Assembly (NCBI GenBank): GCA_000002435.2
Contig: CM018793.1
Source: Giardia intestinalis
Lineage: Eukaryota
Reading direction: 5' to 3' (one strand)
Length of the DNA: 64,000 nt
Positions 11,482-55,679 of this stretch are shown here, piece after piece (the stretch's first letter is position 1; each line of letters begins with the position of its first letter). Position numbers and translations under genes: made by a program. A model generated the notes under the pieces. That model was not told the DNA's origin. It made no database searches and worked only from the letters and a program-made list of their open reading frames with translations.

Positions 11482-12150
11482 TTATATTTGTGGCAAATCA
11501 TCTGATGTATCTGTGTATGTAGCGAGGGTGGCACTGAGAACGGTAGAAAGTTTACGAAGACTATACAATTTGCTGACCGTCCTTCCCCTCAAGCACTGAT
11601 GTGAAAGCTCTGCCGATCTAACGGGCCGTCCGTGAAGCAGCGGTCCTAGAATGATGGCCCTGTTGATCCCCTGGACAGCAGCAGCGCGGGCCAACGGGGA
11701 CTCTTCTACTTGGCTTATGCTGGGCACCTCTGCTGGGCACAGGCTGCCATTGAGTGGCATGGGTGAGACGGCCAGCCCGATACTGACAGCCTGCTCACTG
11801 GGTTGCATATCGTGATCAAGTATGCGTATGACAGCAGACTCATTGGAGTCAGCAGACCCCCTCTCTACGGGAGTACATCCTATGTCGATAGTCTCACCGG
11901 CGGAACTACCTCTCAAGTGTATATTCTCAGCGGCTTTGGCAGCAATTTCAATAGTAGGAGCTGTGGCAGAACGCGATGTGTGCCTCTTGTCTTCAATCGC
12001 TTTGGAAGTCATAGCAGGTACTGGTTCCCATAATGCTGTGTCGAGGGGAGTGAGCTGGATGCAGCTTTCTTCCTCAATAGTAACTAGGCGTGGCTCCTGT
12101 GCTTGTGGAATGCCTACGAGAGGGGATAGCAAGGGTCTTTTAGTCCTCAT
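11482..12150 (-). CDS. Hypothetical protein (222 aa).
   Basis: It has an ATG start at 12148..12150. Only 7 nt of AT-rich sequence separate it from the divergent ATG at 12158. Confidence 0.45.
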   Translation of the reverse strand: MRTKRPLLSPLVGIPQAQEPRLVTIEEESCIQLTPLDTALWEPVPAMTSKAIEDKRHTSRSATAPTIEIAAKAAENIHLRGSSAGETIDIGCTPVERGSADSNESAVIRILDHDMQPSEQAVSIGLAVSPMPLNGSLCPAEVPSISQVEESPLARAAAVQGINRAIILGPLLHGRPVRSAELSHQCLRGRTVSKLYSLRKLSTVLSATLATYTDTSDDLPQI

Positions 12151-28238: not shown

Positions 28239-28245
28239 AGTGAAT
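28239..28245 (+). terminator. PolyA signal AGTGAAT directly after the HCMP TAG.
   Basis: TAG-AGTGAAT. It matches the AGTRAAY consensus. Confidence 0.45.
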
Positions 28246-28278
28246 TCCTATCTACCGCTGTTTACTATCCGAACAAAA

Positions 28279-28710
28279 ATGGTCAACGACGAGGGGACGG
28301 CTCTCCTCTATGCTAAAGAGGCATCCGAGTCGACGAGAAGAACGCAAATCTATAGTATGGAGCCGTACGCGTCTCCAGGCGAGATACCGTTCCAGGAGCA
28401 GGCGTCTCCATGGCCAAACACCGGTTCTCTTATCCACCTGAGCCCAAGTGTTGAGCCTGTGAAGAAGAATGAGTATGCCCTTCAGCCTGGCATGCCGCTC
28501 TGCACGATACTGTTTGTCATGGGCTGTCTACTCCCTCCAGTGCTCTGGCTAGTCGGCCCTATATTAAGTGCTAGCCCTACTGTGCACCCGGATGTGCGCA
28601 CCAGGTTCTTCTACGCGACAGTGGCTTCCCTGGCATTCACAAGCATGCTTGCACTGGCAGCCCTAGTGACAAGTTTCATTCTCTACAACCAGACGGTCTC
28701 ATCTGAGTAA
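28279..28710 (+). CDS. Small hypothetical two-transmembrane protein. The track ORF starts at a GTG at 28240, and the first ATG is at about 28279.
   Basis: It has two hydrophobic helices (LCTILFVMGCLLPPVLWLVG and VASLAFTSMLALAALVTSFIL). ACAAAAATG is an A-rich initiator. Its 3' end overlaps by 12 nt the stop of the convergent giant gene. Confidence 0.35.
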   Translation: MVNDEGTALLYAKEASESTRRTQIYSMEPYASPGEIPFQEQASPWPNTGSLIHLSPSVEPVKKNEYALQPGMPLCTILFVMGCLLPPVLWLVGPILSASPTVHPDVRTRFFYATVASLAFTSMLALAALVTSFILYNQTVSSE

Positions 28711-31700
28711 AGCGGCATTTTTGTTGAACCATTCAATGAAATCTGCCCATTCATGACACTCAGTGTAGTAGTAACTTCTACGGTAGCGAATGACGACTCC
28801 ATCGACAACAATATAAAGGCGGAGCTCTCGGACAGGGCCAGTTGGGAGGAGCTTGAAGAGGACGGTATAGGAATGGTTGCTCAGTTTCTCAATAAAGACG
28901 CGGTAGCCAGGTTTTGATGATTGAAGAAGCGTCTGTTTGGCTTGCTCCTTTGCAGGCTCGCCCTCCTCGTCTTTTCCGCTCACAAAGTAGCTGCTTCGCG
29001 CGATGGAGCGCAGAAAGTTATTAATCGGTCGGACAAAGTCTCGTATGATGCTCTCCAAAGAGTCAAAAACACGCTCGTTGGGAAAGGAAAGGGCCTCGTC
29101 GGGTAAGACCAGCTGCCTGATCACCAGTTTCTTGCTCACTGCCAGAGAGTTGCGTTGCCCGTTTGGAAGGAGAGGTTTGTAGCGCTCATCCTCCTGAATA
29201 GTGAAGTACATTAGCGACCTTGTGGTCTGCTGAGCCTCGGGGACACACATCACTAAGCGCAGCTTGTTGGGCCCGTTTCTGTGCGGTACAAAAATGAATG
29301 GTCGCTCGTCCACCTCTCGTTGAGCGTTCAGATACTCATATATCTTGCTCCCAAAGATATTCCTGAAATAAGGGTCGCTGATCTCTCTGCGAACGATGCT
29401 TGGGCGGAGGTCCTGCTGCTGTCGGTGAAGATGGTCTGCGTATCGCTGGGAGCCAATAAAAAGAAGGACAGGAATGTAAGTGAAGTAGTTCCAGTGGGCC
29501 TCCCTGCAGAGAAAGACAAGAGGCATGTGTGTCTCCACCGTTAGCCTGTCTAAGAACACTTGGTCAGCCCTTTCTAGTGGGTCAGAAATGTCACTGTACT
29601 CTGCCAAAATAGATGCCAGCTCAGTCCGGAGCTGCGGATGTCGGTCCTCGATAGTGCCGATATTGTTCAAGAAGTAACTCAGATAGTTAGCGAATAGCTC
29701 ATCAATCCTAAACGCGTTACTGAAAAAGCCTCTGTCGCCAAATAGCTCATTCAGCTGCGTCTGCAGGGCCTTGTTCAAAAGGTCCCGATACAAGCTCCCA
29801 ATAATGGTCCCGGACGACCCGGATAGAAGAGTGTACAGAGCAAGCCTAGTGAACGTTCTACACTGGGTTTGCCTCGTTTCGCCAGGATCAGATATGCCTA
29901 CGTCTGACAGTGCTCTGAGGAGATGCATTAGTGCCTCGCTGATGGAGACGGGTTTCTCCAAAAATGAGGCGAATTTCTTTGGCATCTTGTCGATTCTATT
30001 AAAGTACGTATTGGTTATAGAGGTGCTTAGCTTGCTGTACCTATAGCATTGTTCTGTACTCAAAATTGCATCCAGAAGACGAAGCTGTAGCTTATTCATG
30101 TGAAGCTGAGGAAGACAGTCCACTACCTTGACCTGCCTGTCAAACGCTGCGTCTTCGTCACGGGAGAGCGTGACCACAAGGGAAAGGACATTTTGATGAA
30201 GATCTATGCCAAAAAGGTAAGCATCAAACTCTGTTTCGATGGCACCCTCAGTTTCCAGTGTGGAAAGATCAGACAGCAAGGAAACCTGGCCTGTAAGACC
30301 TTCGTAACGGCTCACGCGCACCCGCTTCATCACAGAGTTGGTAATCCACTGAGCTGCAGGACAGAACACCTTGAATGCCCTATACCGCGAAAAAACTGCA
30401 GGGTTGGATTCCCCAGATAAAGATATGAAGATTATCTCCTTGCTGTACTCAATGAACGGCCGTCCCGCATCGATAAGCTCCATTGTGGGATAACGGAGCT
30501 GGTGATAGCGCGTTGCTTGGGTAATGACATCCAGTACTTGGGAGAGAACGGGCCGAATATTCTCGGCAGAGCACAGAAGATCCCGCAAAAGAGGATCTAT
30601 TGTCATAAGTTGGGAGCATAGGAAAATGAACCCCTCTGTGAAGTCCTTCTTCCCGCTACCAAGCTCATCACCGGAACTGCTTCTTGCAGTTCGATTGAGC
30701 CGCCCAACCAAGTACTTTACCAGCTCCTGCTGAAGAACGGATGCCGACCCTCCTGCGACAGAGGAGTGCTCCACGTAGTCGTCGCCAATGCTAGACACAT
30801 ACGTCTCTTTAAATCCCTTGTAAAAAGCCAGCAATAGGTTTTCAACAGGCTCTTCGTCACCAAGTTTGTCTAGTTCTCGGTCCATTCCTTTGTAGAGAGT
30901 ACAGATCTTTTTATAGTCATCGAGCTCCTCAAGATACAGTTGCAGCGCTTTGTTGTCCCCACTCTGCTTTATAGATAAATACCTGTAAAGCTCTTTGGCA
31001 AATAGAAGCCTAGACGGTTGAGGATTTAGATCCTTTAGTGGCACGCCCTCTGCTATGCTTGGCTGTATTCTTCCTAGCCAGTTTGGAGCCTCTTCCAAGG
31101 CAAGCTGATTGATCGAGCTGAAAAATTGGCGATGATTTTCTTCAGCCTTATTATGCAACTCGTTACGAAGACCGTCCAGCGCAGATCTTAAATCAGTGCC
31201 TCTGTTAAATAAAGGGTCAGCAATCAAACTACTACATGATGCCTTAAACAGCAGGCTTGTTAATATTAGTGCAAGGTTCCTAGCGGCACAATAGTCTGTC
31301 TGATACAAACCCATCTTGAGGGTCAAGTTGTGTAGAAAATCATCAAGCTTTTTGGAACCTTTAAACAAGCAAAACTTGAGGAAAAGACTAGCAACTAGTT
31401 GGGTCTCTTTACCAGATAGAGACACCATGTCATGATAGGTGAGCCCCATAAATTCCTTCAGCTCCAAACTGCTCAGGTAGTTAGTAAGGTTTTCAGGCCA
31501 GAAGATGGCATCTGAGTACAGAGTCTGCGGCTGGGTCCTTTCCGTCAAGCTTTCATTTGTGTAGCCATCCTCCTCATCCTGCACACTATTAGAAAATGCA
31601 TTGATGGAGACACTATGATAAAGCTGGGTGTAGTACAACTCCAACGAATTTTGTATCAGCATAGTACGATCGATAGCGTGTCGGTACCTGTTAAATGAAA

Positions 31701-34700
31701 AATCTTTAATTCGTGGCCCAATCCAACGTAGAAGCAGTGTAGTTACAATATTAGGATTCTCAGCAGTGTAGGCAGCAGAGTATGCTCCACCCGGGTAGCT
31801 CAATATCACGTCATGTGTGATCGAACACCCGTGGGCCAACGCGACGTTAACCAACTCGATGTATTTGCAGACTCTTTTCATGACATTCGTGGGGGTGTAC
31901 TTTGGATTGGTAAAGAAATCTATTAAGCTCTTCTTCATGTAAATCCGTGTCAGCTTAGTGAAGTAGACATTTGCTATAAGATACCGAGTAGCGTCTGCAG
32001 AAGGCGGCCTTTCAAATGGATCCTTAACCAATCCTATATCCTCAAGGTGTACAGAACTGGTCAACCCTGAAGGCAGGCTACTCTCATGTTTATCCACATA
32101 CTTCTTGTAAAGAGCGAGTTCTGGATTTATGAGCTGTATATTGCAGATATCCGCGACCGTGCAACTCGACCTTGCCAGCCCGACTAAGCCTTTGGCAACG
32201 TGCTCGATATTTTGAACGGCCTCCTGATATGTAAACGGGGTATCGTCCTCTATGCTTTTGAAACGATTAAACGCGTCATCTTGAAACTCCTTAGTGGAAA
32301 CGCAATATGTAATGACAAAATCCTCTAGAATTAGCTCTGCAATTATGTTAGCTAGAAACGCCTTATTTTTGAAAACCATCCCTAGTCTATGCTCATCGTT
32401 AGCTTTCTTCCCTGCAGAGAGTTCTGTGTCCATTTCACGTACACCTCTCCGCTTGCTAGAAGATTCGACGGTTATCCGCTCTCCGTGAATATTACACGAC
32501 GTAGCTGCCAGAATAGCCAGATATGACTGGCGAATCATCTTGAGGAGATCCCCATTAAAGTAATCCTCCAATGATTGTATGGTCTTCATGAGGGAGTCTT
32601 TGGTGGAGTCGTCGCTAGGAAGATCGGCTTTATGTAGGTCTGTTAATTTGTCAATATAAGCCTGCAACTCTTGCGCTTTTTCAAGCCCGCTGGCATACTT
32701 CTCGATATCACTGCTTAAAGCTAGAAAATTATCGTGGCGACGAGATATGAAAACTCTCTTGTACACTCTGAGAAGCTTCCGTGCAGAAAGCCACGGGAGA
32801 AAGGCTATCAGATGGGTATAGTGAGGAGATATAAACGGCAAGTTGATGTCTGGACGGCGTCTGTAGATGGCTAGTGAGAGTGCATAGTGGGCTATGAATG
32901 AAAAGCAGAGCTTAAACCTCGCATGGAAATCAGATGAGACGTTGATCGTGCGGACCTTATCACTGCTCTCAAGATTGGTTAAGGGAGCAAAGTCGGTCAT
33001 AAAATTAATCAGGGGGGCTGCTACCAAGTCTTCTATCGACCCACCCCCATTTGCAAGGCATGCATAAGCAGCGAGCGGGTCCAACAAATAGCGTCCTGCC
33101 CAGATGCCAAGGACAACGCTCTCGCCGTGGTAATGATCCTCTATTGCCCGGTAGTCTACCTTGGGGTGCACATACAATCCAGGGAGATACTGACCCCTAA
33201 AAAGCTCTGGTGGAAGCGCATCTTTTTGCAAACGTGCCCCGGTCTCATCCAACTGCAAACCATCAAGCGCAAGTCTAGTGGCAACACTATACATTTTAAC
33301 GTTACCAGTGGTGAGAGAAAGCTTCTGTCTACAGAGGCGAATCCGATCATGTGCCTGCGAGACGGGATAGAGATTCCAATGGAAGGGGCTGCTACTTATG
33401 ATGAGATTTGTAGACGTCTTAAGCATGCTGCTAATAACATTCAGCATTATGTCTCTTTGCCTTTGAAAGCTAAGTCGAGCCCCTTCTTCTCTGTGCGTAC
33501 CTCTAAGTATGAAACTGGGATCATGCATCATACGGAACTTCTTACTATATAACGACATTGGGACATCAGCAGGGATGCGTAGGAGATTGATTCTTGTTAT
33601 GTTGTAAGCTAATGGCTGTCTCTTAAAGAAGAGATCATCTATGAAGAGCGGATTTCCACTGATCAAAGCCTTCTCTAAACATGGGAACTCCACGTTTCTC
33701 CACTGATCTACTTGAAAATTGGATCCGGAGGCATCGTTCGCCTCTTTTCTTAAAAGACTTGCCTCAATGTATTTTGGTAGTGGAAGGTTGAGATACTGAA
33801 GTGTGGCCTCCAAGTTTCGATACGTTGAGTCACTAGTAAACCCGCGGGATAAGACCCCAACCGCACAAACGCCGGAAGAAATAATGTAGTCGTGAAGCCT
33901 AGCTTCGTCCAGGATGCGTTGAAACTCTGATTGGCGAGAAGAGTAGACCTGCAATGCAGGCTCCAGAACCTTGAAGAGCTTTTCACGGGGACAGCTGACA
34001 AGGGAGGCGAAGATGGGATCCAAGGATCTGACAAGCGCTCTGTACTCGTTCCGGACCTGCTCGCACGCTTTTTCAGTGCGCAGAGGGTTGGGGAGCTGCT
34101 CATGATACTGTGAAAGAATCAAGTGGGATACGTACCGGCCGTAGCGGTCTAACACGACAAAGGTGGTGCAGTCGTGTCCAACTCCTGCTACGGATAAACC
34201 CAGGTGCTTGTCGTCTCTAGATATCTTTGACTTGTTCACAGAAACAATCCTATGGGGTATGCATATCATAATTCGGAAGTGTTTGCACGCTCCTACAAAA
34301 CTCGGAGATTTGTTGCGTGTAGAGTCGATGTCAAACGGAGTTTTATTTTCATTATAAAGCGGAACCAGGTTTGGCTTTTCACGTCGCTCCTTATCTGTTT
34401 GGCTCATGGTTGGCTTTTGCAAGCGGAGAGGATTATATTCTGGGGTGGAAAAGCGGATGCTCAACGAGTGAAGCGCCTGCGTTTCTAGAGCCTCTATTGC
34501 ATGACTATGTAGGACCTTTATGAGATTCTCCTGGGCTCGGAAAAGAATCTTTGACACAATATCGTCTAAAAATGTATTACAGTTATCGTACCAGCATTGG
34601 AAATTGTCGGCGACAATCTCGTGCAGATCACTGATCTGATGACCACTCCGTTCTTCCAGTCTACGTTGTGTCAATTCCAGAAGGCTATCAAATGATGAGA

Positions 34701-37700
34701 AGTCATGCAACCGGTCTAGATGGTCAAAGAAGCACCCATATGGAAAAATAAAGGCTGAAACGGCCTCTTTTAGCTCCCCAAACTTGCACACGTCGAGAAC
34801 CTTAGGGCACACAACTAGAGGATGCTTCGTCTTAGCTATTGAAAACTCTATCCTCGGAGTCACTTTGTTTGAGGCAGGAATACCCTCGTGAGACGAAGCA
34901 CGCTTGGAGCACTCATAGATCTCGTTAATATATATAAATGCAACGCGATTGAATCCCTGTGCGTAGTACTTGCTGAATAAATACAGAGGTGCTTCATGGA
35001 TGTAGCACACACTGGAGAATATATCATCTACATTAACTACATAGGATGCTTCGCTAAATAGAGACTTGTATGCAACTGGATCCTCCGTAAATTCTGACAC
35101 AAGCCCTTGACTTGGGACATTTCTGCGCTGAGAGACATCTGCCGGCAACTCGACTGAGATAGCCCCGAACTTGAGCAAGAACATCATTGTCATGTATTCT
35201 ACGATCGGATTTGACTCCAGATAACTTTGCAAATACACCTTAACGTTTTCGAAGAATTTAAACTTCATCTCTTCTGGGGTAACACCAAGGTATTCATCGT
35301 CTTGCGAATAGTATCTGGATCTGTGAGTGACCAGTTTATATAAGTGCGGAAATTCTTCGGGCTGCTCCCCTTCTATTGCTCTTTTATAGATAGTATAGAT
35401 CTTGGAGATGGGCATCTCGGCCGCCTTCTGCGCATAGATAATTTGGATTTTATCCAGAAGCCGCTTTCTAAACAGTTCTGGGCTTTCTGTATAACCTAAA
35501 CAGCTCTCCAGTCCTGGCGGGACGTAGTTTTCATCATCTATCATACTTGCTTGCTCGTCTGGAGAGAGATCCGTATAGAAGGTGACTTCTCTATCCTTAA
35601 TTTGGTAGAACTCCATGAGAGTACGAGCAAATAGCTCGTCAGTCATGGTGTCAATATACTTGGCCAGCAAAGTATCCACTGAGATGGAGCCAAAGTAGTA
35701 GATGAAAAACGGTACTGGATAGGTGTTGTGCTCTGTGGCTGCTGAAGCAAGCACGATATTATATACTAGGTCATTGACAGACGAAGACGCGGCAACGGTA
35801 GAAGTAGAAGTATTAGGGAGAGTCTTTCCTAGAAACTCGTGAAAAAGAGCGGATGCTGTCTCTGATATTGGCAGAGAGCATTTATTAAAAGAAAACGGTG
35901 CCAAGAAGGTTGAAACGACATAGTTGAGAACACGGATACGTTCAGAGATCGAACGATAGGTGAGCAATCCTATGTATTCAATCATGTCATGACTATCAGC
36001 AAGTAGGGTATCCATGGATGCAAAATCAATGGGCGCATCCTGCTGTATTTGAAGTTTGAAGCTGGCACATATACCAGCTAGTTTCCTAATGCATCTTCCG
36101 ATGTGATCTGCAGCCAGAATGTCTGTGCTGTTCTTTACCCACTCCTCCAGTGTTTCTGGAATGAAGAGGTGACCCATGTAGTCAGCAGCCTTCTTGTAGA
36201 GTGACGCGGTCTTAAGGCCGTGGACGTCCAGTTCATCAAGCGTGTTGAGCGTAGCAGATAGTAGGTCCCTGATTGTAGCGTCTTTGAAAGAAGTATTATC
36301 TAATAGCATGGGCCCAATATGCTCGCGAATGGAGACATCAGAAGAGGTACTTCTACACAGTCGTTCATGTATAACACATACATTGTGCAACTTCGTCACC
36401 AAGAAAGACGCGGCAGCCTGTTGAATTCGATAGACAGTCAGATCAAATGCAAAGCCCACCAGCTCACGCTTATGTGTTACTTCGTAGTCCTTGGGGATTA
36501 GCGCGTGCTTATTAATCCCTCCGTTTGAGGATGGCCTATACATGTCACTGAACATCGTAGGGGTGTCGGTAGCAAGCACAACCGACCCTACAAGGTCCGT
36601 CATTGCTGAACTATACATGTTCGCTTCAGTAGCAACAACGGCTGCGCTTACCCCCTTGGTAAACTTCTCGATAGCAAAGAAGACAAATTTGATCGAATGG
36701 AGGAGGCGAACGTTGTAATTAAGGATCTCTTCTACCTCAGCACATATGTCCTTCTGTGCGCGCTTCAGTGTGTCGTTAATAGCGATGTCTTGACGTTCTC
36801 CATAGGAGCGGTCCAGTAGGTGATTCCCACTATCTGTGCCGAGATAGATCATGTCAGCAGCCAAAAATACCTCGTATTTAGATGTGATTGTCTCCATCTT
36901 CTGTTCTACCTGAAGGCTCTTGGCAAGCATGATGGCAACATCAGCACACGTGCCTGAGGAAAGATGACTATCTGAGGGATACTCCGAAGATGCACTGAGT
37001 ATGATCTGCTCAGAATTCACGGCAAGAGTCCCGATATCTTCTATAACATCCTGGATATCTAACTTAAGCTTAGCAAACAAGTCCATGTTCTGCAGATCTG
37101 CATTCAGAGTCCTAGTATTTTCAATTTCAATTATTATATGCAAGAGCTCCTCTAGGTGTCGCGTTGTGCCTTTCAGAGTAGTCAAAATTCGAATGAAAGA
37201 AGCAGAGGAAATGTGAAAGACATGGTTCATCTGCTCTGCTACAGCTGCAATGTCACGAGGCACGACTCTGGTTAAGGAGATGGTTGGTATAGCGCGAAAA
37301 TCAGTACAGCTGTCCACGAACTTCGCCACAAACTGGGCAAAAGGCTTAATCGCTAGGACATACGGTTGCGTCTCACCTAGGACAGAGCGGTCTAGAAAAG
37401 ACGCCTCAAAAGCAGAGGGCACAAAGATATCATAGAGAACGGCCACGGTGATCTCGTGAAGCAGACTGTCCTGGTCCACATGGTTTGGAAGATGGCGGCA
37501 TATTTCCAGAAAGAGATGCTGTACAAGCTGTGTCTCATTGATGAACATCGAGGAAAACCTTCGGCCGATGTTACTAACCTGGAACTCATCTAGGGCGCTT
37601 AGCTTCTGTAAAATCTTGCCTTTCTTCCGTGAGGTCTCGCCTCCTGCCTTGCTCCTTACCTTATGGCGCTTGACGACACTTTCCTTAAAGTTCTTAGAAG

Positions 37701-37833
37701 CAAAATAGTTTTCTAGGGCGTTGTCTCCAAAAAGATCCTCCATTGGATCATCGTCAGTCTCGGACGATTCATCCACGTCGTCTTCAGTGTTAACAAAGCT
37801 ATAGTCTTCGGACTCGTGAGACTCGTCGGACAT
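28699..37833 (-). CDS. Giant hypothetical protein (3044 aa) with an acidic N-terminus.
   Basis: An uninterrupted 9.1 kb ORF with an ATG start. I did not spot a P-loop, kinase or HECT motif. The composition is helical/leucine-rich. Confidence 0.75.
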   Translation of the reverse strand: MSDESHESEDYSFVNTEDDVDESSETDDDPMEDLFGDNALENYFASKNFKESVVKRHKVRSKAGGETSRKKGKILQKLSALDEFQVSNIGRRFSSMFINETQLVQHLFLEICRHLPNHVDQDSLLHEITVAVLYDIFVPSAFEASFLDRSVLGETQPYVLAIKPFAQFVAKFVDSCTDFRAIPTISLTRVVPRDIAAVAEQMNHVFHISSASFIRILTTLKGTTRHLEELLHIIIEIENTRTLNADLQNMDLFAKLKLDIQDVIEDIGTLAVNSEQIILSASSEYPSDSHLSSGTCADVAIMLAKSLQVEQKMETITSKYEVFLAADMIYLGTDSGNHLLDRSYGERQDIAINDTLKRAQKDICAEVEEILNYNVRLLHSIKFVFFAIEKFTKGVSAAVVATEANMYSSAMTDLVGSVVLATDTPTMFSDMYRPSSNGGINKHALIPKDYEVTHKRELVGFAFDLTVYRIQQAAASFLVTKLHNVCVIHERLCRSTSSDVSIREHIGPMLLDNTSFKDATIRDLLSATLNTLDELDVHGLKTASLYKKAADYMGHLFIPETLEEWVKNSTDILAADHIGRCIRKLAGICASFKLQIQQDAPIDFASMDTLLADSHDMIEYIGLLTYRSISERIRVLNYVVSTFLAPFSFNKCSLPISETASALFHEFLGKTLPNTSTSTVAASSSVNDLVYNIVLASAATEHNTYPVPFFIYYFGSISVDTLLAKYIDTMTDELFARTLMEFYQIKDREVTFYTDLSPDEQASMIDDENYVPPGLESCLGYTESPELFRKRLLDKIQIIYAQKAAEMPISKIYTIYKRAIEGEQPEEFPHLYKLVTHRSRYYSQDDEYLGVTPEEMKFKFFENVKVYLQSYLESNPIVEYMTMMFLLKFGAISVELPADVSQRRNVPSQGLVSEFTEDPVAYKSLFSEASYVVNVDDIFSSVCYIHEAPLYLFSKYYAQGFNRVAFIYINEIYECSKRASSHEGIPASNKVTPRIEFSIAKTKHPLVVCPKVLDVCKFGELKEAVSAFIFPYGCFFDHLDRLHDFSSFDSLLELTQRRLEERSGHQISDLHEIVADNFQCWYDNCNTFLDDIVSKILFRAQENLIKVLHSHAIEALETQALHSLSIRFSTPEYNPLRLQKPTMSQTDKERREKPNLVPLYNENKTPFDIDSTRNKSPSFVGACKHFRIMICIPHRIVSVNKSKISRDDKHLGLSVAGVGHDCTTFVVLDRYGRYVSHLILSQYHEQLPNPLRTEKACEQVRNEYRALVRSLDPIFASLVSCPREKLFKVLEPALQVYSSRQSEFQRILDEARLHDYIISSGVCAVGVLSRGFTSDSTYRNLEATLQYLNLPLPKYIEASLLRKEANDASGSNFQVDQWRNVEFPCLEKALISGNPLFIDDLFFKRQPLAYNITRINLLRIPADVPMSLYSKKFRMMHDPSFILRGTHREEGARLSFQRQRDIMLNVISSMLKTSTNLIISSSPFHWNLYPVSQAHDRIRLCRQKLSLTTGNVKMYSVATRLALDGLQLDETGARLQKDALPPELFRGQYLPGLYVHPKVDYRAIEDHYHGESVVLGIWAGRYLLDPLAAYACLANGGGSIEDLVAAPLINFMTDFAPLTNLESSDKVRTINVSSDFHARFKLCFSFIAHYALSLAIYRRRPDINLPFISPHYTHLIAFLPWLSARKLLRVYKRVFISRRHDNFLALSSDIEKYASGLEKAQELQAYIDKLTDLHKADLPSDDSTKDSLMKTIQSLEDYFNGDLLKMIRQSYLAILAATSCNIHGERITVESSSKRRGVREMDTELSAGKKANDEHRLGMVFKNKAFLANIIAELILEDFVITYCVSTKEFQDDAFNRFKSIEDDTPFTYQEAVQNIEHVAKGLVGLARSSCTVADICNIQLINPELALYKKYVDKHESSLPSGLTSSVHLEDIGLVKDPFERPPSADATRYLIANVYFTKLTRIYMKKSLIDFFTNPKYTPTNVMKRVCKYIELVNVALAHGCSITHDVILSYPGGAYSAAYTAENPNIVTTLLLRWIGPRIKDFSFNRYRHAIDRTMLIQNSLELYYTQLYHSVSINAFSNSVQDEEDGYTNESLTERTQPQTLYSDAIFWPENLTNYLSSLELKEFMGLTYHDMVSLSGKETQLVASLFLKFCLFKGSKKLDDFLHNLTLKMGLYQTDYCAARNLALILTSLLFKASCSSLIADPLFNRGTDLRSALDGLRNELHNKAEENHRQFFSSINQLALEEAPNWLGRIQPSIAEGVPLKDLNPQPSRLLFAKELYRYLSIKQSGDNKALQLYLEELDDYKKICTLYKGMDRELDKLGDEEPVENLLLAFYKGFKETYVSSIGDDYVEHSSVAGGSASVLQQELVKYLVGRLNRTARSSSGDELGSGKKDFTEGFIFLCSQLMTIDPLLRDLLCSAENIRPVLSQVLDVITQATRYHQLRYPTMELIDAGRPFIEYSKEIIFISLSGESNPAVFSRYRAFKVFCPAAQWITNSVMKRVRVSRYEGLTGQVSLLSDLSTLETEGAIETEFDAYLFGIDLHQNVLSLVVTLSRDEDAAFDRQVKVVDCLPQLHMNKLQLRLLDAILSTEQCYRYSKLSTSITNTYFNRIDKMPKKFASFLEKPVSISEALMHLLRALSDVGISDPGETRQTQCRTFTRLALYTLLSGSSGTIIGSLYRDLLNKALQTQLNELFGDRGFFSNAFRIDELFANYLSYFLNNIGTIEDRHPQLRTELASILAEYSDISDPLERADQVFLDRLTVETHMPLVFLCREAHWNYFTYIPVLLFIGSQRYADHLHRQQQDLRPSIVRREISDPYFRNIFGSKIYEYLNAQREVDERPFIFVPHRNGPNKLRLVMCVPEAQQTTRSLMYFTIQEDERYKPLLPNGQRNSLAVSKKLVIRQLVLPDEALSFPNERVFDSLESIIRDFVRPINNFLRSIARSSYFVSGKDEEGEPAKEQAKQTLLQSSKPGYRVFIEKLSNHSYTVLFKLLPTGPVRELRLYIVVDGVVIRYRRSYYYTECHEWADFIEWFNKNAALLR

Positions 37834-37900
37834 ATCTCTCTACACCTAGAGCACCTTCTGGCAACTTTTTTTTCAATCGCTCGGGCCAGTTGAACTTCTT

Positions 37901-40900
37901 ATGAGCTTTCAGCTCCACGTCTCCCCTGGGCCTTCCCAGCAGTTGCTGCACCAGGGGATAGTTGTCAAGTACTCTGGGTCCACCTCTGTGGCAGCGCAGA
38001 AGAGTCCAGTACTCTCCGACAATTTGAATGCCTGCACGGCTTCAGCCTTATCGAAACAGATTGCAAAAGTAGGAACTCTCAGTTCTCATAAAGTCATAGA
38101 CATATCTCTTTGTGATGACGCGGCATATGTTCTACTCTCCACCGGACAGCGCCTGAAGCTAGCCGTTACTCCTCCTGAGGACCAAGCCGCCACTTCCCTT
38201 TTTACCTCCGCTCCTGTCGAAGACTTTGTAGCCTGGCCAGCCCTGTCCTTTCCGGGGCCAGAGTATCTTGCATGCCAGACGCGAGTCGTAGTCGTATACA
38301 ACTTTCTATTCAGGCCCTCAAATGTATCTACCAATGTTTTGGCAGAACAGCCAGATAATGCTGCTGGCGAGGGTTCGCAAAAGCACCTTTTTTCGTATGT
38401 AGCGCTTATTTTCAGCAATCCACAATTTCTACCAATGAACAGATTGCTTCTCGACGGTAACTTTCTAATTACTAACTGTGCATTTGATGAAAGCACAGTT
38501 ATAGTATCTCTTCTTTCCGGTCATATTCTATTTATAGATCGTACACAGCAACTCCAAAAGCACAATGTAATTGACTCCAGCAACTATAGCTATTACGGTT
38601 TAATTTCCTATGCTTCTCTTGCTTCGCAATTAATGAGTGACTTCCAGTCAGCCTTTTCAGGCAATTTCTCTTTCCGTGAAGCGATCCGCCTTCTATCTAT
38701 CTCCCCCTCCAAACACGTTCCATTCATTGCATTTCGTGGTTGTGACTTTATCCTTGCCATGCCACTAGGATGTATTTTCATATTTACAAGGCATAGACTA
38801 CATGACGGTGGCTCTAGTCGCCTAGTTCTTTCTCACGCCACAGTGACTCTTCCATTTGTGCGCCATGACCTCCCTAACAAGAGCTTCAAGATAACGCACT
38901 ATGCGGCAAGCCGAGTTTCTTTCTTCCTGCCGGTCAGTGATACCATACTGATCGTTGGCTATGATAATTCTGTGATTCAATATTACTGCTGGGATGTTGA
39001 TGGAATGGCACATCCATTAGATGGTGTGGATCTTTCTGCGGGAAGGATAACCCATATTCACGCTGGCTTGATGCTTTTATCAGACTCCAGGGACTCGGCG
39101 TCCAGTTCGAGCACCTCTGGGCTTACACACCCAACACAACCATCTAACATGGTTCCCGTTAAGGTGCTTATTGTAGCGACCATTGGCTCGTCGCTTTTCT
39201 TTGTTGTCCAATGCTTTCCCAAAATGGCGCTTATTACCACCATTTCTGCTCCAGAAAGATTTATCGACTCTGGAAAAATCTGTTCGCCTACTAATCAGCA
39301 GTTTTCCCCTATACTTATTTACACTGCAATTGATGGGTCGCTACGATATACCCACTTCCCGAACGGGTATCTATTCCGATCCGGTCTTTATGAATCCGGT
39401 GAAACTGCTCAGCATCACGAGCGGCCAGACAAGACAGTTCAAAAGATTACTTCACTCCTTAAAAATGTCACCTGTCAATATGAGAGCGATGAGTCTGCAT
39501 CTGAACTTAATGTACTTAATGATAGATCTAAGGCCGCCATTCCTGCGTTTCTACTTAGTTCTAGTGAACACGAAGCTTCTTCGCACTCGACAGAAGAACA
39601 CAATAGGCCAAAACGATCCATTTTGGACATAGGTAATATAAAGACTGAGCCCACTGGCTCTTCCCACCGTAGAAAACGGCCCCGAAAGTTAACCAGCATT
39701 GGTGCACGCTCCAGTCTTTGGACTCCGTCAGTTCACAATAAAGTGTTAGCTCTGGGTGAGCCAGCCGAACCTGAACTGCTGCAATCGATAGAATCGCTTA
39801 GTATTTCACCATTCGATAATAAGTCTACATCTCCCCATGTAGCGCCAACATTTCAGCTTGCATGTAGACCCTTTGAACAAGTCAGTGTTCAGCTCGGTAC
39901 TGAGCCGCTTCTGGTGGAGCTCCAGGGACTATATTCGCTTCTAGGGACAATACACCGAAGGAAGTTAGAGACGGGAGAACGGGTGTCCTATGATGATAGT
40001 TCTTTGACCAGACTTAGCATTATCCGCAACACCCACGATCTGATCAAAAGGACAGCACTTATGACACAACGAGTTACAATCTCAGAATACCAGAAGTCTA
40101 TCTCCCCCTCTATAAACATTCATAAGCTGTTGATGTCACCAGAAAATCTCACGCGCGCAACAGAGCTACTCGCTAGAAACGACCAGATTTTTCGTTCATC
40201 CAGAAACAGAATTCTGCCTCACGTTCGAAATGCATATCTCCACCTCAAGTATGCTGATAGAGTAACTGGAAAGGCGAAAAAGAGGCCAAGTAGCCCTTTC
40301 CGCTTGGCAAGACCCTTGGCCAATCAATTTGCCCCACTAACTAAAACTGGCTCCCTGACCTCCACCATATTCTCTGGTCCACGAAGATCCTTGAGTTTAA
40401 AACCATATGGAAGTCATCGTGGTGTGCACGGTCACCTTAGTGCTGAACGTGTCCTGAAGCACAAGGGGAGTCATGCGTTTCGGTATCTCCCTATCCTAGC
40501 CCGGGATCTTATGCTCGATAATGTCTATCCTGTTCTTATGGAGCCAGAATACATTTCACGAAGTGCATGGTCTCCCTCGCTTAAACCCCGTGAAGGACCA
40601 CATCACCTAACTAGTATTATAATGAGATCAAGAAGCAGGCAAACAGAGCTAATCACTCACAGACATACGGATAACTTCATTGGTGTACTCCGCAGCAAAG
40701 TGCTTGAGAAACCGGTAGAAGGAACTCTCAATAGAGTCAAACACAAGGAGAAGGAAAGGGCCCGCCCCAAAATAGTAGTTAACAGATATGAGCATATCAA
40801 AGTGATAGACAAAGAGTTATTGAAGGACCTTCGCCGCTTCAAGGCGCTCAGGCTTGGCCGTGACTTAGGAGGTAGAATTCTTCGAGACAAGGCAGTTCTT

Positions 40901-43900
40901 AGTGCTCTCCTGACGGGTAAAAATGCCTCTGAGAACCTGAAAGGCCTTATCGATCTTACCAACCACGATAGCATGTTCCTGGACGACATTCTTTCTATGG
41001 GTAAGAATATCATTAGCATACTCGATCCTGAAAACGACTGCATTCTTGAAAGCATCCCAGCGTCTAGAATGGCAAGCAGTCGCAAAGGCCTGAGACCTGG
41101 TAATCTCACTGATCATGAGAGCTCCACTCAAATGGATGCCGTCGAGATCGCTCGTCTTATTACACCAAAGGATACTTCGTTGAGGACTCTGCAGCACAGT
41201 AGGCCACCTACTGCAGAGCAAAAGGATCTCTTTGGGTTTGATCTAATGAACCAACTGCTTCGTAATTTCGACTATAGACTAAATCGGAGGCGTGTGCGGA
41301 GCGGCATAAATGGCATCATCACTGTTTCTGATGAGTATACCAAAACAGTTTTGCTCCGAAGATCAGCCTCGTTGCCAACAATTGAGACCCTTAATAGAAA
41401 CAGGATTGATTTGGCCACAAAACTAGATTCCATTTTGGGCCATGAGATGGGGATAAGTAGATGGGATGAGGACGCAAATCGTAGCTATCGTGCACGCATC
41501 CTTTCAATAGATCGTCTTTCTGATCCTGAGAGCAGCATTTGGGATACTGAGGAAACGTTCAGCTCTTCCTACAGCTCTGTGCCGAGCGATTTAGAGGATA
41601 GCGGGGTATGTATTCCTATGCCTGCTACAAGTTTGGTACCATTCGCTGCACGGAACTGCTTTTCAGCAGATGCGCCTAGACGAGTGAAGTTGTCGTTAGA
41701 CAAAGACCCTCTTCCTAGAAGATCGTATTCTGCTAGGCGAGCCGCTGAGGCGACACTCATAAATCTGCAACCTTTAGACACAGACCTGTATGCTACTCGC
41801 ATAGCTACCTGTGGAACCATAGATTTAGGAATAGATCTGGATAATGACAGGGCAGTTACTCCGACAGGACGTGTGCACCCTGATAATGTTGACAGTTCAG
41901 GCTCAGAGGGTCCTTCAGATAGCGATGTGCCCCGCTTGAACTCCGGGACAAGATCTCCGAGCCCTACTACATCGTTGTCTGATACCATATCCAATGAACC
42001 CACTGAATACGCACCATCTATCTTCGGCATTAGAGGAGAGTTTGATCCTAATCAATACGTCGTCTCTTCGTCGTATCTCCCTGACCTTTTGCTTCGTGCA
42101 GCGCTTCAAGATTTAAAAAAGCAAATGGCGACTACGAGCAATACAAAAAGGCCTTTACCCCTGCTTCGAGACGATTGTTCACAAATATTTAAAGCATTGC
42201 GCAAACCATCTATTATATCCAACATCAAGGTTCAGAAAAAGCAAAGTCAATACGGATACAACCCGTTGTCCCGGTACTGCATGCAAAACCATATGTTTTG
42301 TCCGCGAGAGCACTTCGAGCTCCGCACTCTAGCCACGAGAGATGTAGCTCTTGATGTAAAGCGGAGAGCATATTCATTTGATAAGCTGGAGCCTTTAATT
42401 CTCGCTAAAGAAAAGTATGGACAAAAGCCCATACAGTCCCAGCGTGCGCATAACCATCTTCTGAATGCTGACCTTAACGACAACACGTGCCTGTCTAACT
42501 GTCCAGATTGGTCGCTTAGAGACGATTATGACTATCTAAGTTTTAAGCCTATAAAGAGCAGAAGATGGGAAAGAAGAGGATATGCTGACCATACCGGTGC
42601 ATCGCTTATTACAAACCAACAACGAACCCCGCCAATAGTACAGCAATCTACAACCGTTGCCCCATATACTTTTGTTGGAGACGAAGACCATAGAGCTGCT
42701 GTTAGACTCAAAGCGTTTACTACCCACGCAGAGACCCTGGCCCTAAACCGGATAAAGCGAAGACAAGCAAGCACTCTGCCACTTATTACAAAAATGAGGG
42801 CCTTTAAGAAGCTTTTCACCAGAGAACTATACGAGGATTGGGCCAGATTGTATCGTCACAATGTGATCAGAAGGGATACCCTCTACGATGATCAGTTTGA
42901 GGTTACCGTCATGAAGCCAACGTTTCCACTATATTATCATGTAATGACAAACAAAACTGAAATGGACGGAATGATCAATAACATAATCAACGACGAAGCC
43001 GACGGCTTAGAGTCGGTTGTGCATGCAAATTTAGTGGTTACAAAAGCGCAGTTTCCCTTTTCTGGTCCTCAAAATCAGTCTATCGATTCTCTCTTTGACG
43101 ACATGCAGTTAGCACTAGGCTCATGGCCCGAGCAGCAGTCTGAAGAAAGCATGATACCACATCATTATGCTCTTCCTCCTAAACCACCTTATTACAACCC
43201 GCGAATTCCTGTTGTTGACTCCTTCGATGGATTCTATGATCCTGCTTCTATTGTTCCACTGGAGCCACTCCTTCCAGAAGGAGAGGACGGAATCCAGCTG
43301 CAAATTGGCGTGTTTACACCATATGCGTTTTGTCTAAAGAATCCCGAGTTTGTTGATAACGAAAAGCTAACAACGGTTTTAAATCCAGTTGCATACATGA
43401 GCTGCAATGACGTTATACTGAGTTCTTCTCACTGTGAGAAACCGCATAGTTTCCTAGCAAAGCATTTAAAGGAGGCGGGATACCCCCTGGCTGATGGTAC
43501 TGACAATGAACCATTAGACTTGGAGCAACTAGACTCGCGACAAGGCTGTCTAGCATCCTTTGATGTCAGAGTCAATGAGTTTATTACATCTTTCTTTAGT
43601 CTTTCCGAGGCTAGATCAGAGGACCTTCCAAAATACCACAAGGGTATCTATGCTCACTCAGTTCATTCATTGCCGTCGCATACAGAAGGTTTCCTTCCCA
43701 GGGTTCGGCTTTCCATGCTCACAGTTGGGCAGGCAGCAAAGACAGTATTCATACGATATTTTCAATCATTCACGCCAGTGCAGAGGAAGATAATGGCCCA
43801 GACTGCGTCACGAGGCATTACCATTGATTACAACCGGCTTAATTATGTTCCATATTCATTTTTGCAGCTACTGTTGCTCTACTCCACTGCACTAGCAATC

Positions 43901-46183
43901 CTTGAGCTCCTGAAGGGCCAAAGATATGCATCCAAGCATCCAGAACAATCAGTGCCGTTACCAGGTTCTCGCCGGTTGCGTTATATTCTTGATACGCAAT
44001 TCCCTGTAGAGCCAATCCTGCCGTCCAAAATGAAAAATAAAAAAGATAGCTATGGACGTGCCTCATCAGACGTATATACAGAGCCATACTTTAATTTCTA
44101 TAGTGTCCAGGCTGTACTGACATACAGCTGCGAAACCTTTGTTCGATATTTATTAATAATAATATACTATGTGCGATTGTGCAATCTGGAGACCTGCATT
44201 TCGAGATTTGTGGATTATCAACTTAGGCGAGTGCTCAAACAGGATGCGTATATACAAGAGCTTTCAGACCCATACAAAGGTGTGGTGAGAATCTATGAGC
44301 AAATGGAAACTCACATTTGCGCTGTCCGTAGCTTGCAAAAGGTCAAGGAATTCAGCTGTGTCTACGAAGATTGCCTTCGGCAATCTATATTTAAAGCCGC
44401 TTCGGGTGAAGTTTCAGTAACTCGACCGTTTCCCTTTCTAACATACTTTGGGCCTCGATCAGATCTTGCAGCCTTGTCCCGTATACTAGGGAAAACTCTA
44501 GGAATATCTGCAGATTTGCTACCAATGCAAAGTACCACCTTAGCCGTGATTTACAATGACAGTGACTTAAAGGCGGAAGCACTTGAGGCCATTCTAAGTA
44601 AGTATGCCATCGGCTGCATGCTTGATGATACAAAAATGCATATCCATGGAGTCTACGCTGCGATTCTGAATCGTTTCCAACTTACCAAGAGGACTCTTGC
44701 GAGCGAAAGTACTCAGTACTTCTCTGGGTTTATAACCAACTTAGTTGCGATACCTCTATCTATACTAATTCTACTCAGTAGATTGGAAGAGATTGAATCG
44801 CTAGACATATCGCATACCCAAAAGGCCGTTATTTGTCGCAAGTTACACATAGTATTGCTTGAGGCATACATTAGGGCGTTCATTACACACAAGAAACTAT
44901 CGCTGGCCATATTTTCTCCGTTGGTTCCCATGTATGTCCATACCTTTAGAATTCCAAGGTCATCAAGCTACCAGAGCTATGCATCAATGCTCCGTCAGAG
45001 GCAGCATGCTATTTATAAGATTCTTTATAACGCTTCTATGCACGAATTGCGGCTGCGCATGCACAACAACTATGTAATACAGCATCCTGATATAACAGGT
45101 GTCATTGGAATAGCTAAAGCAAATGCGCTCTCTCACTTCTTCTCTACTCACTTTCATCCTGCATATGTGGCTGGCTATGTGAAGTATACCGTTTGCCACA
45201 AGGTAATAATAGGTGAGGGGATTTATTCCGAGGCAGATATTGGCGCCAAGGATGAGTCATCTCAGTTAGATGCTTCAACTATCTCTATCCCCGGCAAGGC
45301 CTACTCTGAGCTACGTGATAACCAGTCTGAGTCTTCTCTCAATCTTTCGTGGTATACGTCACTCTGCAACGCCGTGATTAAGAATCCATTGGCAGAAGGA
45401 ATACAAAAAGCATACAAGAATAGATACTCGTATGACCTCTATGAAGACAACGTTTCTCTGTTAGAGCAAGTCAACCAATCCTCCTACAAAGGAAACTCGC
45501 AATTTCTAGCATTAGTCGCTACAAACAAATTTGACGAGCTGCGTCGAAACATTGAGGAACGGAGACTTAGCTTAGACAGAGGACGCCTTAGTGAAGAGCC
45601 GACAGGCCGGAGCATTGACCAATCAAGAGAGGACCTTCCCGCCCTTGGGAGGAGCATCTTTCGCAATCGGATATTAGACACGTTGAAAAGCAGCATTGTA
45701 GATCCGGCGCAGAAGAACTTCGGGGATAAGAGTATGATTGAAAGGTCATCGGCGGAGGAGCTATGCATTAGTGAATCCCTCGGGGATTCTGTTCAGGCTG
45801 GTGAGCGGATACTTGCGAATACTACTGTGCAACTCCTCAAAACACAGAAGCTGGCGCATAACATATCGAACTGGACTGAGATTGCAAAAGATGAGGAATC
45901 AAACCTGGAGCAATCCTGCATAGCAAACCCTCCAGACGCTACGACGCAAAATTCAAATAGAGCTAGCGTTGACTCTACATATGAATTGCGTAGGGCATTT
46001 ACTGATATCCGTGTACCTAGGTATCGTACATCCAGTGTACTGGTGCATACTAACACAAAGCGTCTTGGAATCTTACTCAACAAACCATTGCCGTCTATTC
46101 CTGCCGGTTCCACTCATAGATCTTCTTTCATAGAGGAAGAAGAGTTATTCGCAAAGGGTAGGAGGAGCGCTTCAAATGCTTAG
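37901..46183 (+). CDS. Giant hypothetical protein (2760 aa), Ser/Arg-rich.
   Basis: An uninterrupted 8.3 kb ORF with an ATG start. It is divergent from the 3044-aa gene across a spacer of about 67 bp containing a T9 run. Confidence 0.7.
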   Translation: MSFQLHVSPGPSQQLLHQGIVVKYSGSTSVAAQKSPVLSDNLNACTASALSKQIAKVGTLSSHKVIDISLCDDAAYVLLSTGQRLKLAVTPPEDQAATSLFTSAPVEDFVAWPALSFPGPEYLACQTRVVVVYNFLFRPSNVSTNVLAEQPDNAAGEGSQKHLFSYVALIFSNPQFLPMNRLLLDGNFLITNCAFDESTVIVSLLSGHILFIDRTQQLQKHNVIDSSNYSYYGLISYASLASQLMSDFQSAFSGNFSFREAIRLLSISPSKHVPFIAFRGCDFILAMPLGCIFIFTRHRLHDGGSSRLVLSHATVTLPFVRHDLPNKSFKITHYAASRVSFFLPVSDTILIVGYDNSVIQYYCWDVDGMAHPLDGVDLSAGRITHIHAGLMLLSDSRDSASSSSTSGLTHPTQPSNMVPVKVLIVATIGSSLFFVVQCFPKMALITTISAPERFIDSGKICSPTNQQFSPILIYTAIDGSLRYTHFPNGYLFRSGLYESGETAQHHERPDKTVQKITSLLKNVTCQYESDESASELNVLNDRSKAAIPAFLLSSSEHEASSHSTEEHNRPKRSILDIGNIKTEPTGSSHRRKRPRKLTSIGARSSLWTPSVHNKVLALGEPAEPELLQSIESLSISPFDNKSTSPHVAPTFQLACRPFEQVSVQLGTEPLLVELQGLYSLLGTIHRRKLETGERVSYDDSSLTRLSIIRNTHDLIKRTALMTQRVTISEYQKSISPSINIHKLLMSPENLTRATELLARNDQIFRSSRNRILPHVRNAYLHLKYADRVTGKAKKRPSSPFRLARPLANQFAPLTKTGSLTSTIFSGPRRSLSLKPYGSHRGVHGHLSAERVLKHKGSHAFRYLPILARDLMLDNVYPVLMEPEYISRSAWSPSLKPREGPHHLTSIIMRSRSRQTELITHRHTDNFIGVLRSKVLEKPVEGTLNRVKHKEKERARPKIVVNRYEHIKVIDKELLKDLRRFKALRLGRDLGGRILRDKAVLSALLTGKNASENLKGLIDLTNHDSMFLDDILSMGKNIISILDPENDCILESIPASRMASSRKGLRPGNLTDHESSTQMDAVEIARLITPKDTSLRTLQHSRPPTAEQKDLFGFDLMNQLLRNFDYRLNRRRVRSGINGIITVSDEYTKTVLLRRSASLPTIETLNRNRIDLATKLDSILGHEMGISRWDEDANRSYRARILSIDRLSDPESSIWDTEETFSSSYSSVPSDLEDSGVCIPMPATSLVPFAARNCFSADAPRRVKLSLDKDPLPRRSYSARRAAEATLINLQPLDTDLYATRIATCGTIDLGIDLDNDRAVTPTGRVHPDNVDSSGSEGPSDSDVPRLNSGTRSPSPTTSLSDTISNEPTEYAPSIFGIRGEFDPNQYVVSSSYLPDLLLRAALQDLKKQMATTSNTKRPLPLLRDDCSQIFKALRKPSIISNIKVQKKQSQYGYNPLSRYCMQNHMFCPREHFELRTLATRDVALDVKRRAYSFDKLEPLILAKEKYGQKPIQSQRAHNHLLNADLNDNTCLSNCPDWSLRDDYDYLSFKPIKSRRWERRGYADHTGASLITNQQRTPPIVQQSTTVAPYTFVGDEDHRAAVRLKAFTTHAETLALNRIKRRQASTLPLITKMRAFKKLFTRELYEDWARLYRHNVIRRDTLYDDQFEVTVMKPTFPLYYHVMTNKTEMDGMINNIINDEADGLESVVHANLVVTKAQFPFSGPQNQSIDSLFDDMQLALGSWPEQQSEESMIPHHYALPPKPPYYNPRIPVVDSFDGFYDPASIVPLEPLLPEGEDGIQLQIGVFTPYAFCLKNPEFVDNEKLTTVLNPVAYMSCNDVILSSSHCEKPHSFLAKHLKEAGYPLADGTDNEPLDLEQLDSRQGCLASFDVRVNEFITSFFSLSEARSEDLPKYHKGIYAHSVHSLPSHTEGFLPRVRLSMLTVGQAAKTVFIRYFQSFTPVQRKIMAQTASRGITIDYNRLNYVPYSFLQLLLLYSTALAILELLKGQRYASKHPEQSVPLPGSRRLRYILDTQFPVEPILPSKMKNKKDSYGRASSDVYTEPYFNFYSVQAVLTYSCETFVRYLLIIIYYVRLCNLETCISRFVDYQLRRVLKQDAYIQELSDPYKGVVRIYEQMETHICAVRSLQKVKEFSCVYEDCLRQSIFKAASGEVSVTRPFPFLTYFGPRSDLAALSRILGKTLGISADLLPMQSTTLAVIYNDSDLKAEALEAILSKYAIGCMLDDTKMHIHGVYAAILNRFQLTKRTLASESTQYFSGFITNLVAIPLSILILLSRLEEIESLDISHTQKAVICRKLHIVLLEAYIRAFITHKKLSLAIFSPLVPMYVHTFRIPRSSSYQSYASMLRQRQHAIYKILYNASMHELRLRMHNNYVIQHPDITGVIGIAKANALSHFFSTHFHPAYVAGYVKYTVCHKVIIGEGIYSEADIGAKDESSQLDASTISIPGKAYSELRDNQSESSLNLSWYTSLCNAVIKNPLAEGIQKAYKNRYSYDLYEDNVSLLEQVNQSSYKGNSQFLALVATNKFDELRRNIEERRLSLDRGRLSEEPTGRSIDQSREDLPALGRSIFRNRILDTLKSSIVDPAQKNFGDKSMIERSSAEELCISESLGDSVQAGERILANTTVQLLKTQKLAHNISNWTEIAKDEESNLEQSCIANPPDATTQNSNRASVDSTYELRRAFTDIRVPRYRTSSVLVHTNTKRLGILLNKPLPSIPAGSTHRSSFIEEEELFAKGRRSASNA

Positions 46184-55097: not shown

Positions 55098-55679
55098 TGC
55101 CCGATTGATAGATTGGTAGGAACATACTCGCGGTACATCAGTCAATCCGCGTCGATTGATGCAGTTGATTGATCCTTCTGGCACACGTTGACCACAGGCG
55201 CTGATGGAATCAACACTCACCGGGTCTATCGCGAACACTACTTGCAATCTGCAATCTCGGCACAGGGCCAGAAGGAGGTGGATTGAGCCGAACAGAACTG
55301 CGGCTGTCTCAATGTGTATGTCATACTAATGCACCTCGTGGCTCCGTTGCAATCTGTACGGACCATCCAGTGCGAGCCAAAGCTGCCACACGTGCACTGG
55401 GACAGTACTGCCCAGTAGCGGTCCAGAGCTTTCAATGGCTCCATCAACGGCCCACTGACAACTGCAAGGGCGACCCCCGCAGCTCTGCATAACGTGCATC
55501 CAAGGCCCGAGAGGCAGTGCACAGCAACGAGCGTCTCTCAGATGCGCCAGGAGCCCGTCCCAAGGAGTGTTCAGCCCCGATACCGCTTGGTGTGGCTGTG
55601 CTGCGTCTCATAAGGCACCTTCTGCAGCAGAACTAGGATCCATAACTGCGTTCTCCATTTGAAAAGTCAAAGGGAGCAG

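Follow-up and report, generated by a model that had tools for sequence, protein, structure and literature searches.

What do two giant genes encode that stand head to head with hardly any DNA between them, and does this arrangement mean that their products work together? The question is raised by a stretch of 64,000 nucleotides of Giardia intestinalis (GenBank assembly GCA_000002435.2, contig CM018793.1), hereafter called the window. According to the open reading frame (ORF) listing, gene A occupies 28699..37833 on the minus strand (3044 amino acids, ATG start) and gene B occupies 37901..46183 on the plus strand (2760 amino acids, ATG start). The spacer at 37834..37900 measures 67 bp, and both genes and the spacer cover 17,485 bp or 27.3% of the window. 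Coordinates and lengths given in the initial annotation of this DNA, as well as its coverage of 27%, were reproduced exactly. The same annotation had seen no recognisable motif in either protein and had proposed lineage-specific cytoskeletal or trafficking scaffolds that are co-regulated and belong to one complex. VSP genes in the neighbourhood and exact matches in public collections assign the DNA to G. intestinalis WB. Gene A is GL50803_16317 (XP_001707424.1, A8BEU7) and gene B is GL50803_101948 (XP_001707423.1, A8BEU4); the public annotation of both is 'hypothetical protein'. Neither gene identifier was mentioned in the literature searched, including the supplements of a 2026 survey of elongation factors. 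We consider it likely, with a probability of roughly 0.75, that gene A encodes a giant, divergent Spt6 and that its pairing with gene B is incidental.

The features of gene A are as follows.

28699..37833, minus strand: gene A, putative giant Spt6 orthologue (ORF, with diplomonad orthologues of 2406-3471 amino acids)
37723..37833, minus strand: acidic N-terminus, amino acids 1-37 (direct reading of the sequence)
33034..34275, minus strand: putative YqgF (RNase H-like) region of the Tex/Spt6 type, amino acids ~1187-1600, with a lineage-specific insertion of ~250 amino acids inside
34114-34185, minus strand: putative first hairpin of YqgF, amino acids 1217-1240
33046-33117, minus strand: 'GRYLLDPLAAYA' motif of the YqgF region, amino acids 1573-1596
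32749..32865, minus strand: helix-hairpin-helix (HhH)-like motif 'PDINLPFISPHYTHLIAFLPWLSARKLL', amino acids 1657-1695 (weakly significant alignment to human SPT6)
30154..30264, minus strand: S1-like segment, amino acids 2524-2560, within conserved block 4 at amino acids ~2430-2607 (hhalign)
28786..29418, minus strand: tandem SH2 domain of the Spt6 type, amino acids 2806-3016 (Pfam SH2_2 and family profile against PDB)

The single Pfam match of gene A was SH2_2 (PF14633, the tandem SH2 domain of Spt6), found at amino acids 2806-3016 with an E value of 1.4e-5 and 25.1 bits. From the consensus of the A family, SH2_2 alone was recovered as well, at 26.7 bits. Both scores are marginally under the curated Pfam cut-off of 27 bits. 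Comparison of a 7-sequence profile of the A family with all PDB sequences yielded human SPT6 as the top four matches (7oop_M, 6ted_M; E value 1.6e-4), and the alignment spans residues 1316-1497 of human SPT6, which correspond to its tandem SH2 domain. The C-terminal tandem SH2 domain expected of an Spt6 is present in gene A, with scores slightly below the curated limit. In the first of the two SH2 domains (N-SH2), gene A reads 'FIFVPHRNG' (29266-29298) where the canonical sequence is 'IIRPSSKG', so that the arginine at position betaB5 is replaced by valine. In the alignment, on which this reading depends, the diplomonad sequences have FVPH, FTPD, FGPH, FIPI and FIPK opposite human 'IIRPSS'. 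The betaB5 arginine of the N-SH2, which is conserved in Spt6 without defining the family, was thus found in none of the diplomonad sequences; all of them carry V, T, G or I instead. In yeast Spt6 the corresponding residue is R1282, and it binds the Rpb1 linker at pT1471/pY1473 (PMC5599234).

At the other end of the protein, D and E account for 17 of the first 37 residues, and a conserved 'EDLFGD..L...F.S..F' motif comes next. The acidic start and this motif are common to the orthologues from G. muris, P0012 and Hexamita. Gene A hence features the acidic, disordered N-terminal region of Spt6, although in a version much shorter than that of yeast, which comprises about 300 amino acids.

Members of the A family were collected by an exhaustive HMMER search with amino acids 1101-2300 of gene A against 1.84 billion representatives. 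It returned seven proteins in total, four of which are full-length giants. The orthologue in G. muris is GMRT_15359 (2780 amino acids, 409 bits), automatically named 'Spt6 SH2 domain-containing protein' in UniRef. The Spt6-type SH2 domain has already been flagged by automated annotation; the family is known, and gene A is a divergent and double-sized member of it. Spironucleus salmonicida encodes an orthologue of 2493 amino acids (SS50377_23683), in a genus that the initial annotation had named as a place to look for one, and Hexamita inflata one of 2406 amino acids (CAL6081817). The latter species harbours two near-identical Spt6-like copies (2406 and 2409 amino acids) on different contigs. 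The longest relative (3471 amino acids) is encoded in run SRR31929897 on a contig of 11,418 bp. Ala, Gly and Arg are abundant in this protein, its contig is open in the standard genetic code, and a diplomonad or fornicate not yet sampled may be its source. The four giants align to gene A in five blocks of the same order (amino acids 10-511, 786-1000, 1077-2188, 2430-2607 and 2760-3041), and large size is common to all diplomonad A orthologues. A word-index search with gene A returned G. duodenalis orthologues only and missed the G. muris orthologue found exhaustively, which makes its negative results weak. None of the four distant orthologues gave a Pfam match. Comparisons of A and B with PDB sequences, either as single sequences or as profiles of four and five sequences, yielded nothing relevant.

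Between both ends, a Tex-like core with a YqgF domain, as required for an Spt6, was recognised in gene A. By eye, the A-family consensus shows three signatures in the same order as human SPT6 and bacterial Tex. The stretch 'TTFVVLDSxGRYISHLIL' resembles the first hairpin of YqgF, 'aGRYLLDPLAxYA' resembles 'ARRIQDPLIEF' and 'ARRLQDPLAEL' of human SPT6 and bacterial Tex, and 'PDINLPFxSPHYTYxxxFLPGLSxRKLL' resembles the HhH segment of human SPT6. In a search with a hidden Markov model of the A core, only 24 of 2000 shuffles were not outscored by the human SPT6 core (P ~0.012 by whole score and 0.04 by best domain). One sub-alignment obtained with this model pairs the HhH motif 'PDINLPFISPHYTHLIAFLPWLSARK' with its human SPT6 counterpart at weak significance. 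Amino acids 2400-2620 were aligned by hhalign to the beta1-beta3 part of a Tex S1 profile with a P value of 0.006, compared to 0.5 for the reversed control.

Other formal tests of the core gave no significant match. Reference sequences were taken from E. coli yhgF, PDB alignments and 51 metagenomic Tex genes. Scans of genome contigs and metagenomes for Tex retrieved nothing but relatives with 61-100% identity to E. coli Tex, and the diversity of the profile was limited by this. In hhalign, the A core did not rise above controls, whether it was compared to E. coli Tex alone or to a Tex profile of 53 sequences that included or omitted human SPT6, and the profile-profile alignment with Tex is not significant. 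The hairpin of A was placed on the YqgF hairpin of Tex, yet unrelated controls matched the score. Block-wise hhalign of the core was likewise not significant. Pfam HHH models did not match A, Pfam S1 was detected neither in A nor in the family consensus, and no Pfam match to HtH and death-like (DLD) domains was obtained in A at E <= 10. The latter two would be expected at amino acids 40-1076 and 1700-2430, where the modelled parts are of low confidence.

An AlphaFold2 model of amino acids 1077-2188, calculated with no template, reached a mean predicted local distance difference test (pLDDT) score of 40.6. The model is poor overall, but the pLDDT rises to 60-80 in one island at about amino acids 1187-1420, where the predicted elements are ordered beta-beta-beta-alpha-beta-alpha-beta as in an RNase H-like fold. 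The best match of this partial model was the Tex/Spt6 core. In a Foldseek comparison of the core model with PDB, the best E value was 1.1, and one SPT6 chain as well as folds of the RNase H-like and ASKHA types were among the insignificant matches. As judged from the predicted model, the structural evidence for the core is stronger than the formal sequence tests.

Taken together, the acidic N-terminus, the YqgF region of the Tex/Spt6 type, the correctly ordered HhH-like and S1-like motifs and the tandem SH2 domain at the end lead us to read gene A as a very divergent diplomonad orthologue of Spt6, and this assignment is quite likely. Gene A is then a member of a well-known transcription family and presumably nuclear. 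The statement that no motif is recognisable consequently applies to gene B, for which Pfam and PDB gave no match, and not to gene A with its SH2_2 domain. The cytoskeletal or trafficking role suggested for gene A is contradicted by the Spt6-type tandem SH2 domain and by the best match of the partial model. Homology to a well-known family, which the initial annotation itself had named as an argument against its proposal, does exist for A in the form of Spt6. An assignment to SRBD1 or Tex was ruled out, as a tandem SH2 domain is present.

Quite improbable, though with several observations in its favour, is the explanation that gene A is no functional Spt6 at all, but a lineage-specific giant with a kept or captured tandem SH2 domain and maybe a degenerate Tex-like remnant, while the real Spt6 is absent or located elsewhere. 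All sequence-profile tests of the core failed, more than half of gene A has no counterpart in known Spt6, and the canonical arginine of the N-SH2 is gone; the ordered combination of features listed above nevertheless speaks for Spt6. It is extremely improbable that one or both ORFs result from mis-assembly or from fusion of neighbouring genes. Their unusual length is the sole ground for such a suspicion, and no evidence for it was found. The exact A and B proteins belong to clusters of 16 and 17 members, respectively, and occur with unchanged length on 125 and 64 contigs of independent assemblies. Orthologues of equal length and 61-82% identity are present in other G. duodenalis assemblages, and gene A can be aligned end to end with giant orthologues of three other diplomonad species. 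Since chance cannot produce ORFs that stay open for about 3000 codons, and given the identical length across many assemblies and the conserved orthologues, A and B are real genes. Mis-assembly, which the initial annotation had considered, was dismissed in view of the many concordant assemblies.

Gene B and the spacer comprise the following features.

37901..46183, plus strand: gene B, orphan seen only in Giardia (2760 amino acids, no Pfam or PDB match)
38423..39376, plus strand: conserved N-terminal domain, amino acids 175-492 (BLASTP, 31% identical to G. muris GMRT_10117)
39398..42790, plus strand: poorly conserved linker, amino acids ~500-1630 (conservation and composition profiles; rich in polar and charged residues, ~1,100 amino acids)
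42800..45130, plus strand: conserved C-terminal domain, amino acids 1634-2410 (BLASTP, 27% identical to G. muris)
37834..37900, no strand: divergent spacer of 67 bp with a central T8/A8 run at 37866-37873

The two domains listed are the only regions conserved between gene B and G. muris GMRT_10117 in BLASTP. By eye, the N-terminal domain looks rich in beta-strands. For the C-terminal domain, helices are predicted from about amino acid 1925 onwards (secondary structure of an AlphaFold2 model only; mean pLDDT 33.5). The linker contains one motif resembling a nuclear localisation signal (NLS), 'RRKRPRK' at amino acids 590-596, which is missing from G. muris. Neither gene B nor its family consensus nor GMRT_10117 matched Pfam, PDB sequences or profiles. 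Relatives outside Giardia were not seen in a word-index search, a provisional and weak negative, as the same tool missed the G. muris orthologue of gene A. A word-index query joining the N- and C-terminal alignments of gene B returned nothing, not even gene B itself, an outcome that the chimeric nature of the query probably explains. When identical pairs of genomes are compared, B proteins are 66-67% and 61% identical, compared to 80% and 75% for A, so that gene B appears from its sequence to evolve faster than gene A. We regard gene B as a large, fast-evolving orphan that is provisionally confined to Giardia, and its architecture suggests a scaffold; scaffolds of beta-propeller plus alpha-solenoid type (coat, nucleoporin or IFT-like) were considered as candidates. 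Of the proposal of lineage-specific scaffolds, the lineage restriction holds for gene B as far as searched, with no observation for or against a cytoskeletal or trafficking role, and the proposal fails for gene A with its Spt6-type tandem SH2 domain. An identification of gene B as Iws1/Spn1 was dismissed, as no relevant Pfam domain was detected.

Does the head-to-head arrangement connect the two genes? The short shared spacer is indeed a consistent feature. WB, DHA2, P15 and a further two, more divergent assemblages of G. duodenalis keep the head-to-head order, and their spacers measure 64-67 bp. Across three G. duodenalis assemblages, no part of the spacer is better conserved than its central GAAAAAAA(A)GTT. 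Promoters of Giardia are about 60 nt in length, AT-rich and inherently bidirectional (PMC1885649), and the conserved central A/T tract fits this description. The T8/A8 run is a probable core promoter element shared by A and B.

That A and B form a functional pair, either as a scaffold of the cytoskeleton or trafficking or with gene B as a Giardia-specific partner of Spt6, co-regulated from one bidirectional promoter and acting in one complex, is nevertheless unlikely. The order kept in five genomes or assemblages, the conserved A7-8 GTT element and the NLS-like motif of gene B are in its favour. However, the G. duodenalis assemblages are so close that kept synteny is expected, and G. muris lacks the NLS-like motif. 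The orthologues of A and B are located on different chromosomes in G. muris, and the surroundings of the A orthologue, up to 10 kb away, contain no B-like sequence in G. muris, S. salmonicida or H. inflata. Adjacency is conserved within G. duodenalis, and neither S. salmonicida nor H. inflata shows the pairing. Coding sequence makes up about 92% of the window, many gaps measure just 5-70 bp, and a second divergent pair has no more than 7 bp between its members. Together with the generic bidirectionality of Giardia promoters (PMC1885649), these observations leave the step from divergent orientation to co-regulation and a shared complex unsupported. The Spt6 features of gene A additionally speak against a cytoskeletal role. 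The arrangement looks like ordinary genome compaction with no sign of a shared complex, and taken alone it carries little information.

Several neighbouring features of the window were recorded. A further giant ORF at 13450-19164 on the plus strand (1904 amino acids, no Pfam match at E <= 0.001) is the third large orphan in the window. Three genes contain Giardia VSP domains (22008-28238, plus strand; 52893-55247, minus strand; 57091-58455, plus strand). The first of them (2076 amino acids) has an additional EGF-like match and looks like a giant cysteine-rich surface protein. The G + C content of these VSP-bearing flanks is 0.51-0.58, compared to 0.44-0.47 for the A/B region. The divergent pair with 7 bp in between consists of the ORFs 11482-12150 (minus strand) and 12158-13312 (plus strand). 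Not even the shortest Giardia promoter would fit into this distance, so that either one of the start codons may have been assigned wrongly or the promoter may be situated within coding sequence. The ORFs 366-1898 (minus strand, proteasome AAA ATPase) and 1828-4605 (plus strand, TTG start) overlap by 71 bp at 1828-1898, and an ATG further downstream is the probable start of the plus-strand gene. Downstream of gene A, a GTG-start ORF of 156 amino acids (28240-28710, plus strand) fills most of the convergent gap of 460 bp and overlaps the last 12 bp of gene A, stop codon included. It may be a real small gene, since two other assemblages have called genes of 184 and 140 amino acids in the corresponding place. 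In G. muris, a gene for an mRNA capping enzyme (19820-21301) is located two genes downstream of the Spt6-like gene; it has no counterpart in the G. intestinalis window, and its position is probably a coincidence.

If gene A is Spt6, a name can be given to a core elongation factor and histone chaperone of Giardia, which the NCBI and UniProt records consulted still label 'hypothetical'. It would provide a handle on how Spt6 is recruited without a canonical code in the RNA polymerase II (Pol II) C-terminal domain (CTD), and on the role of the diplomonad-specific insertions. Giardia has a degenerate, non-canonical CTD and no clear orthologues of CDK7/8/9 (PMC521075), and for this reason a changed mode of Spt6 recruitment is plausible. 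A tentative and, as it stands, somewhat doubtful extension is that diplomonads rebuilt Spt6 to about 2,400-3,500 amino acids, reflecting another coupling to Pol II without heptad CTD and kinases of the CDK7/9 type. The Tex-like core and its surroundings would have taken up more than 1,300 lineage-specific residues, partly conserved, and the tandem SH2 domain would have lost its canonical phosphate-binding arginine. The extra modules may stand in for elongation or chromatin factors that Giardia lacks. A less likely part of this idea is that the Giardia-only gene B, which sits on the promoter of Spt6 in G. duodenalis, would be a lineage-specific partner.

The locus was finally compared to known systems. 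Like the head-to-head pair ran/phd, whose ORFs are 153 bp apart (PMC1885649), A and B have a short AT-containing spacer between divergent ORFs. The central A/T tract of this spacer is conserved between assemblages. In this genome such pairs are a general feature and are no indication of a shared function. Bacterial Tex/YhgF (P. aeruginosa Tex, PDB 3bzc) is about 780 amino acids in size and, unlike gene A, has neither SH2 domains nor an acidic N-terminus. Spt6 is represented by the human protein (PDB 7oop_M, 1726 amino acids), by K. phaffii Spt6 (1503 amino acids; both PDB chain lengths) and by yeast Spt6 (1451 amino acids; core structure PDB 3psi). Compared to Spt6, gene A is undetected by any Pfam model of a core domain, HtH and DLD domains were not identified, and the phosphate-binding arginine is replaced. 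About 1,000 additional amino acids precede its YqgF domain. The distance from the hairpin to the DPL motif is 360 amino acids in gene A, but about 110 in human SPT6 and Tex, and about 830 amino acids separate the HhH-like motif from the S1-like segment. With 3044 amino acids, gene A is about twice as long as Spt6. If it is indeed Spt6, this two-fold expansion contrasts with the usual description of the Giardia transcription apparatus as pared-down (PMC521075).

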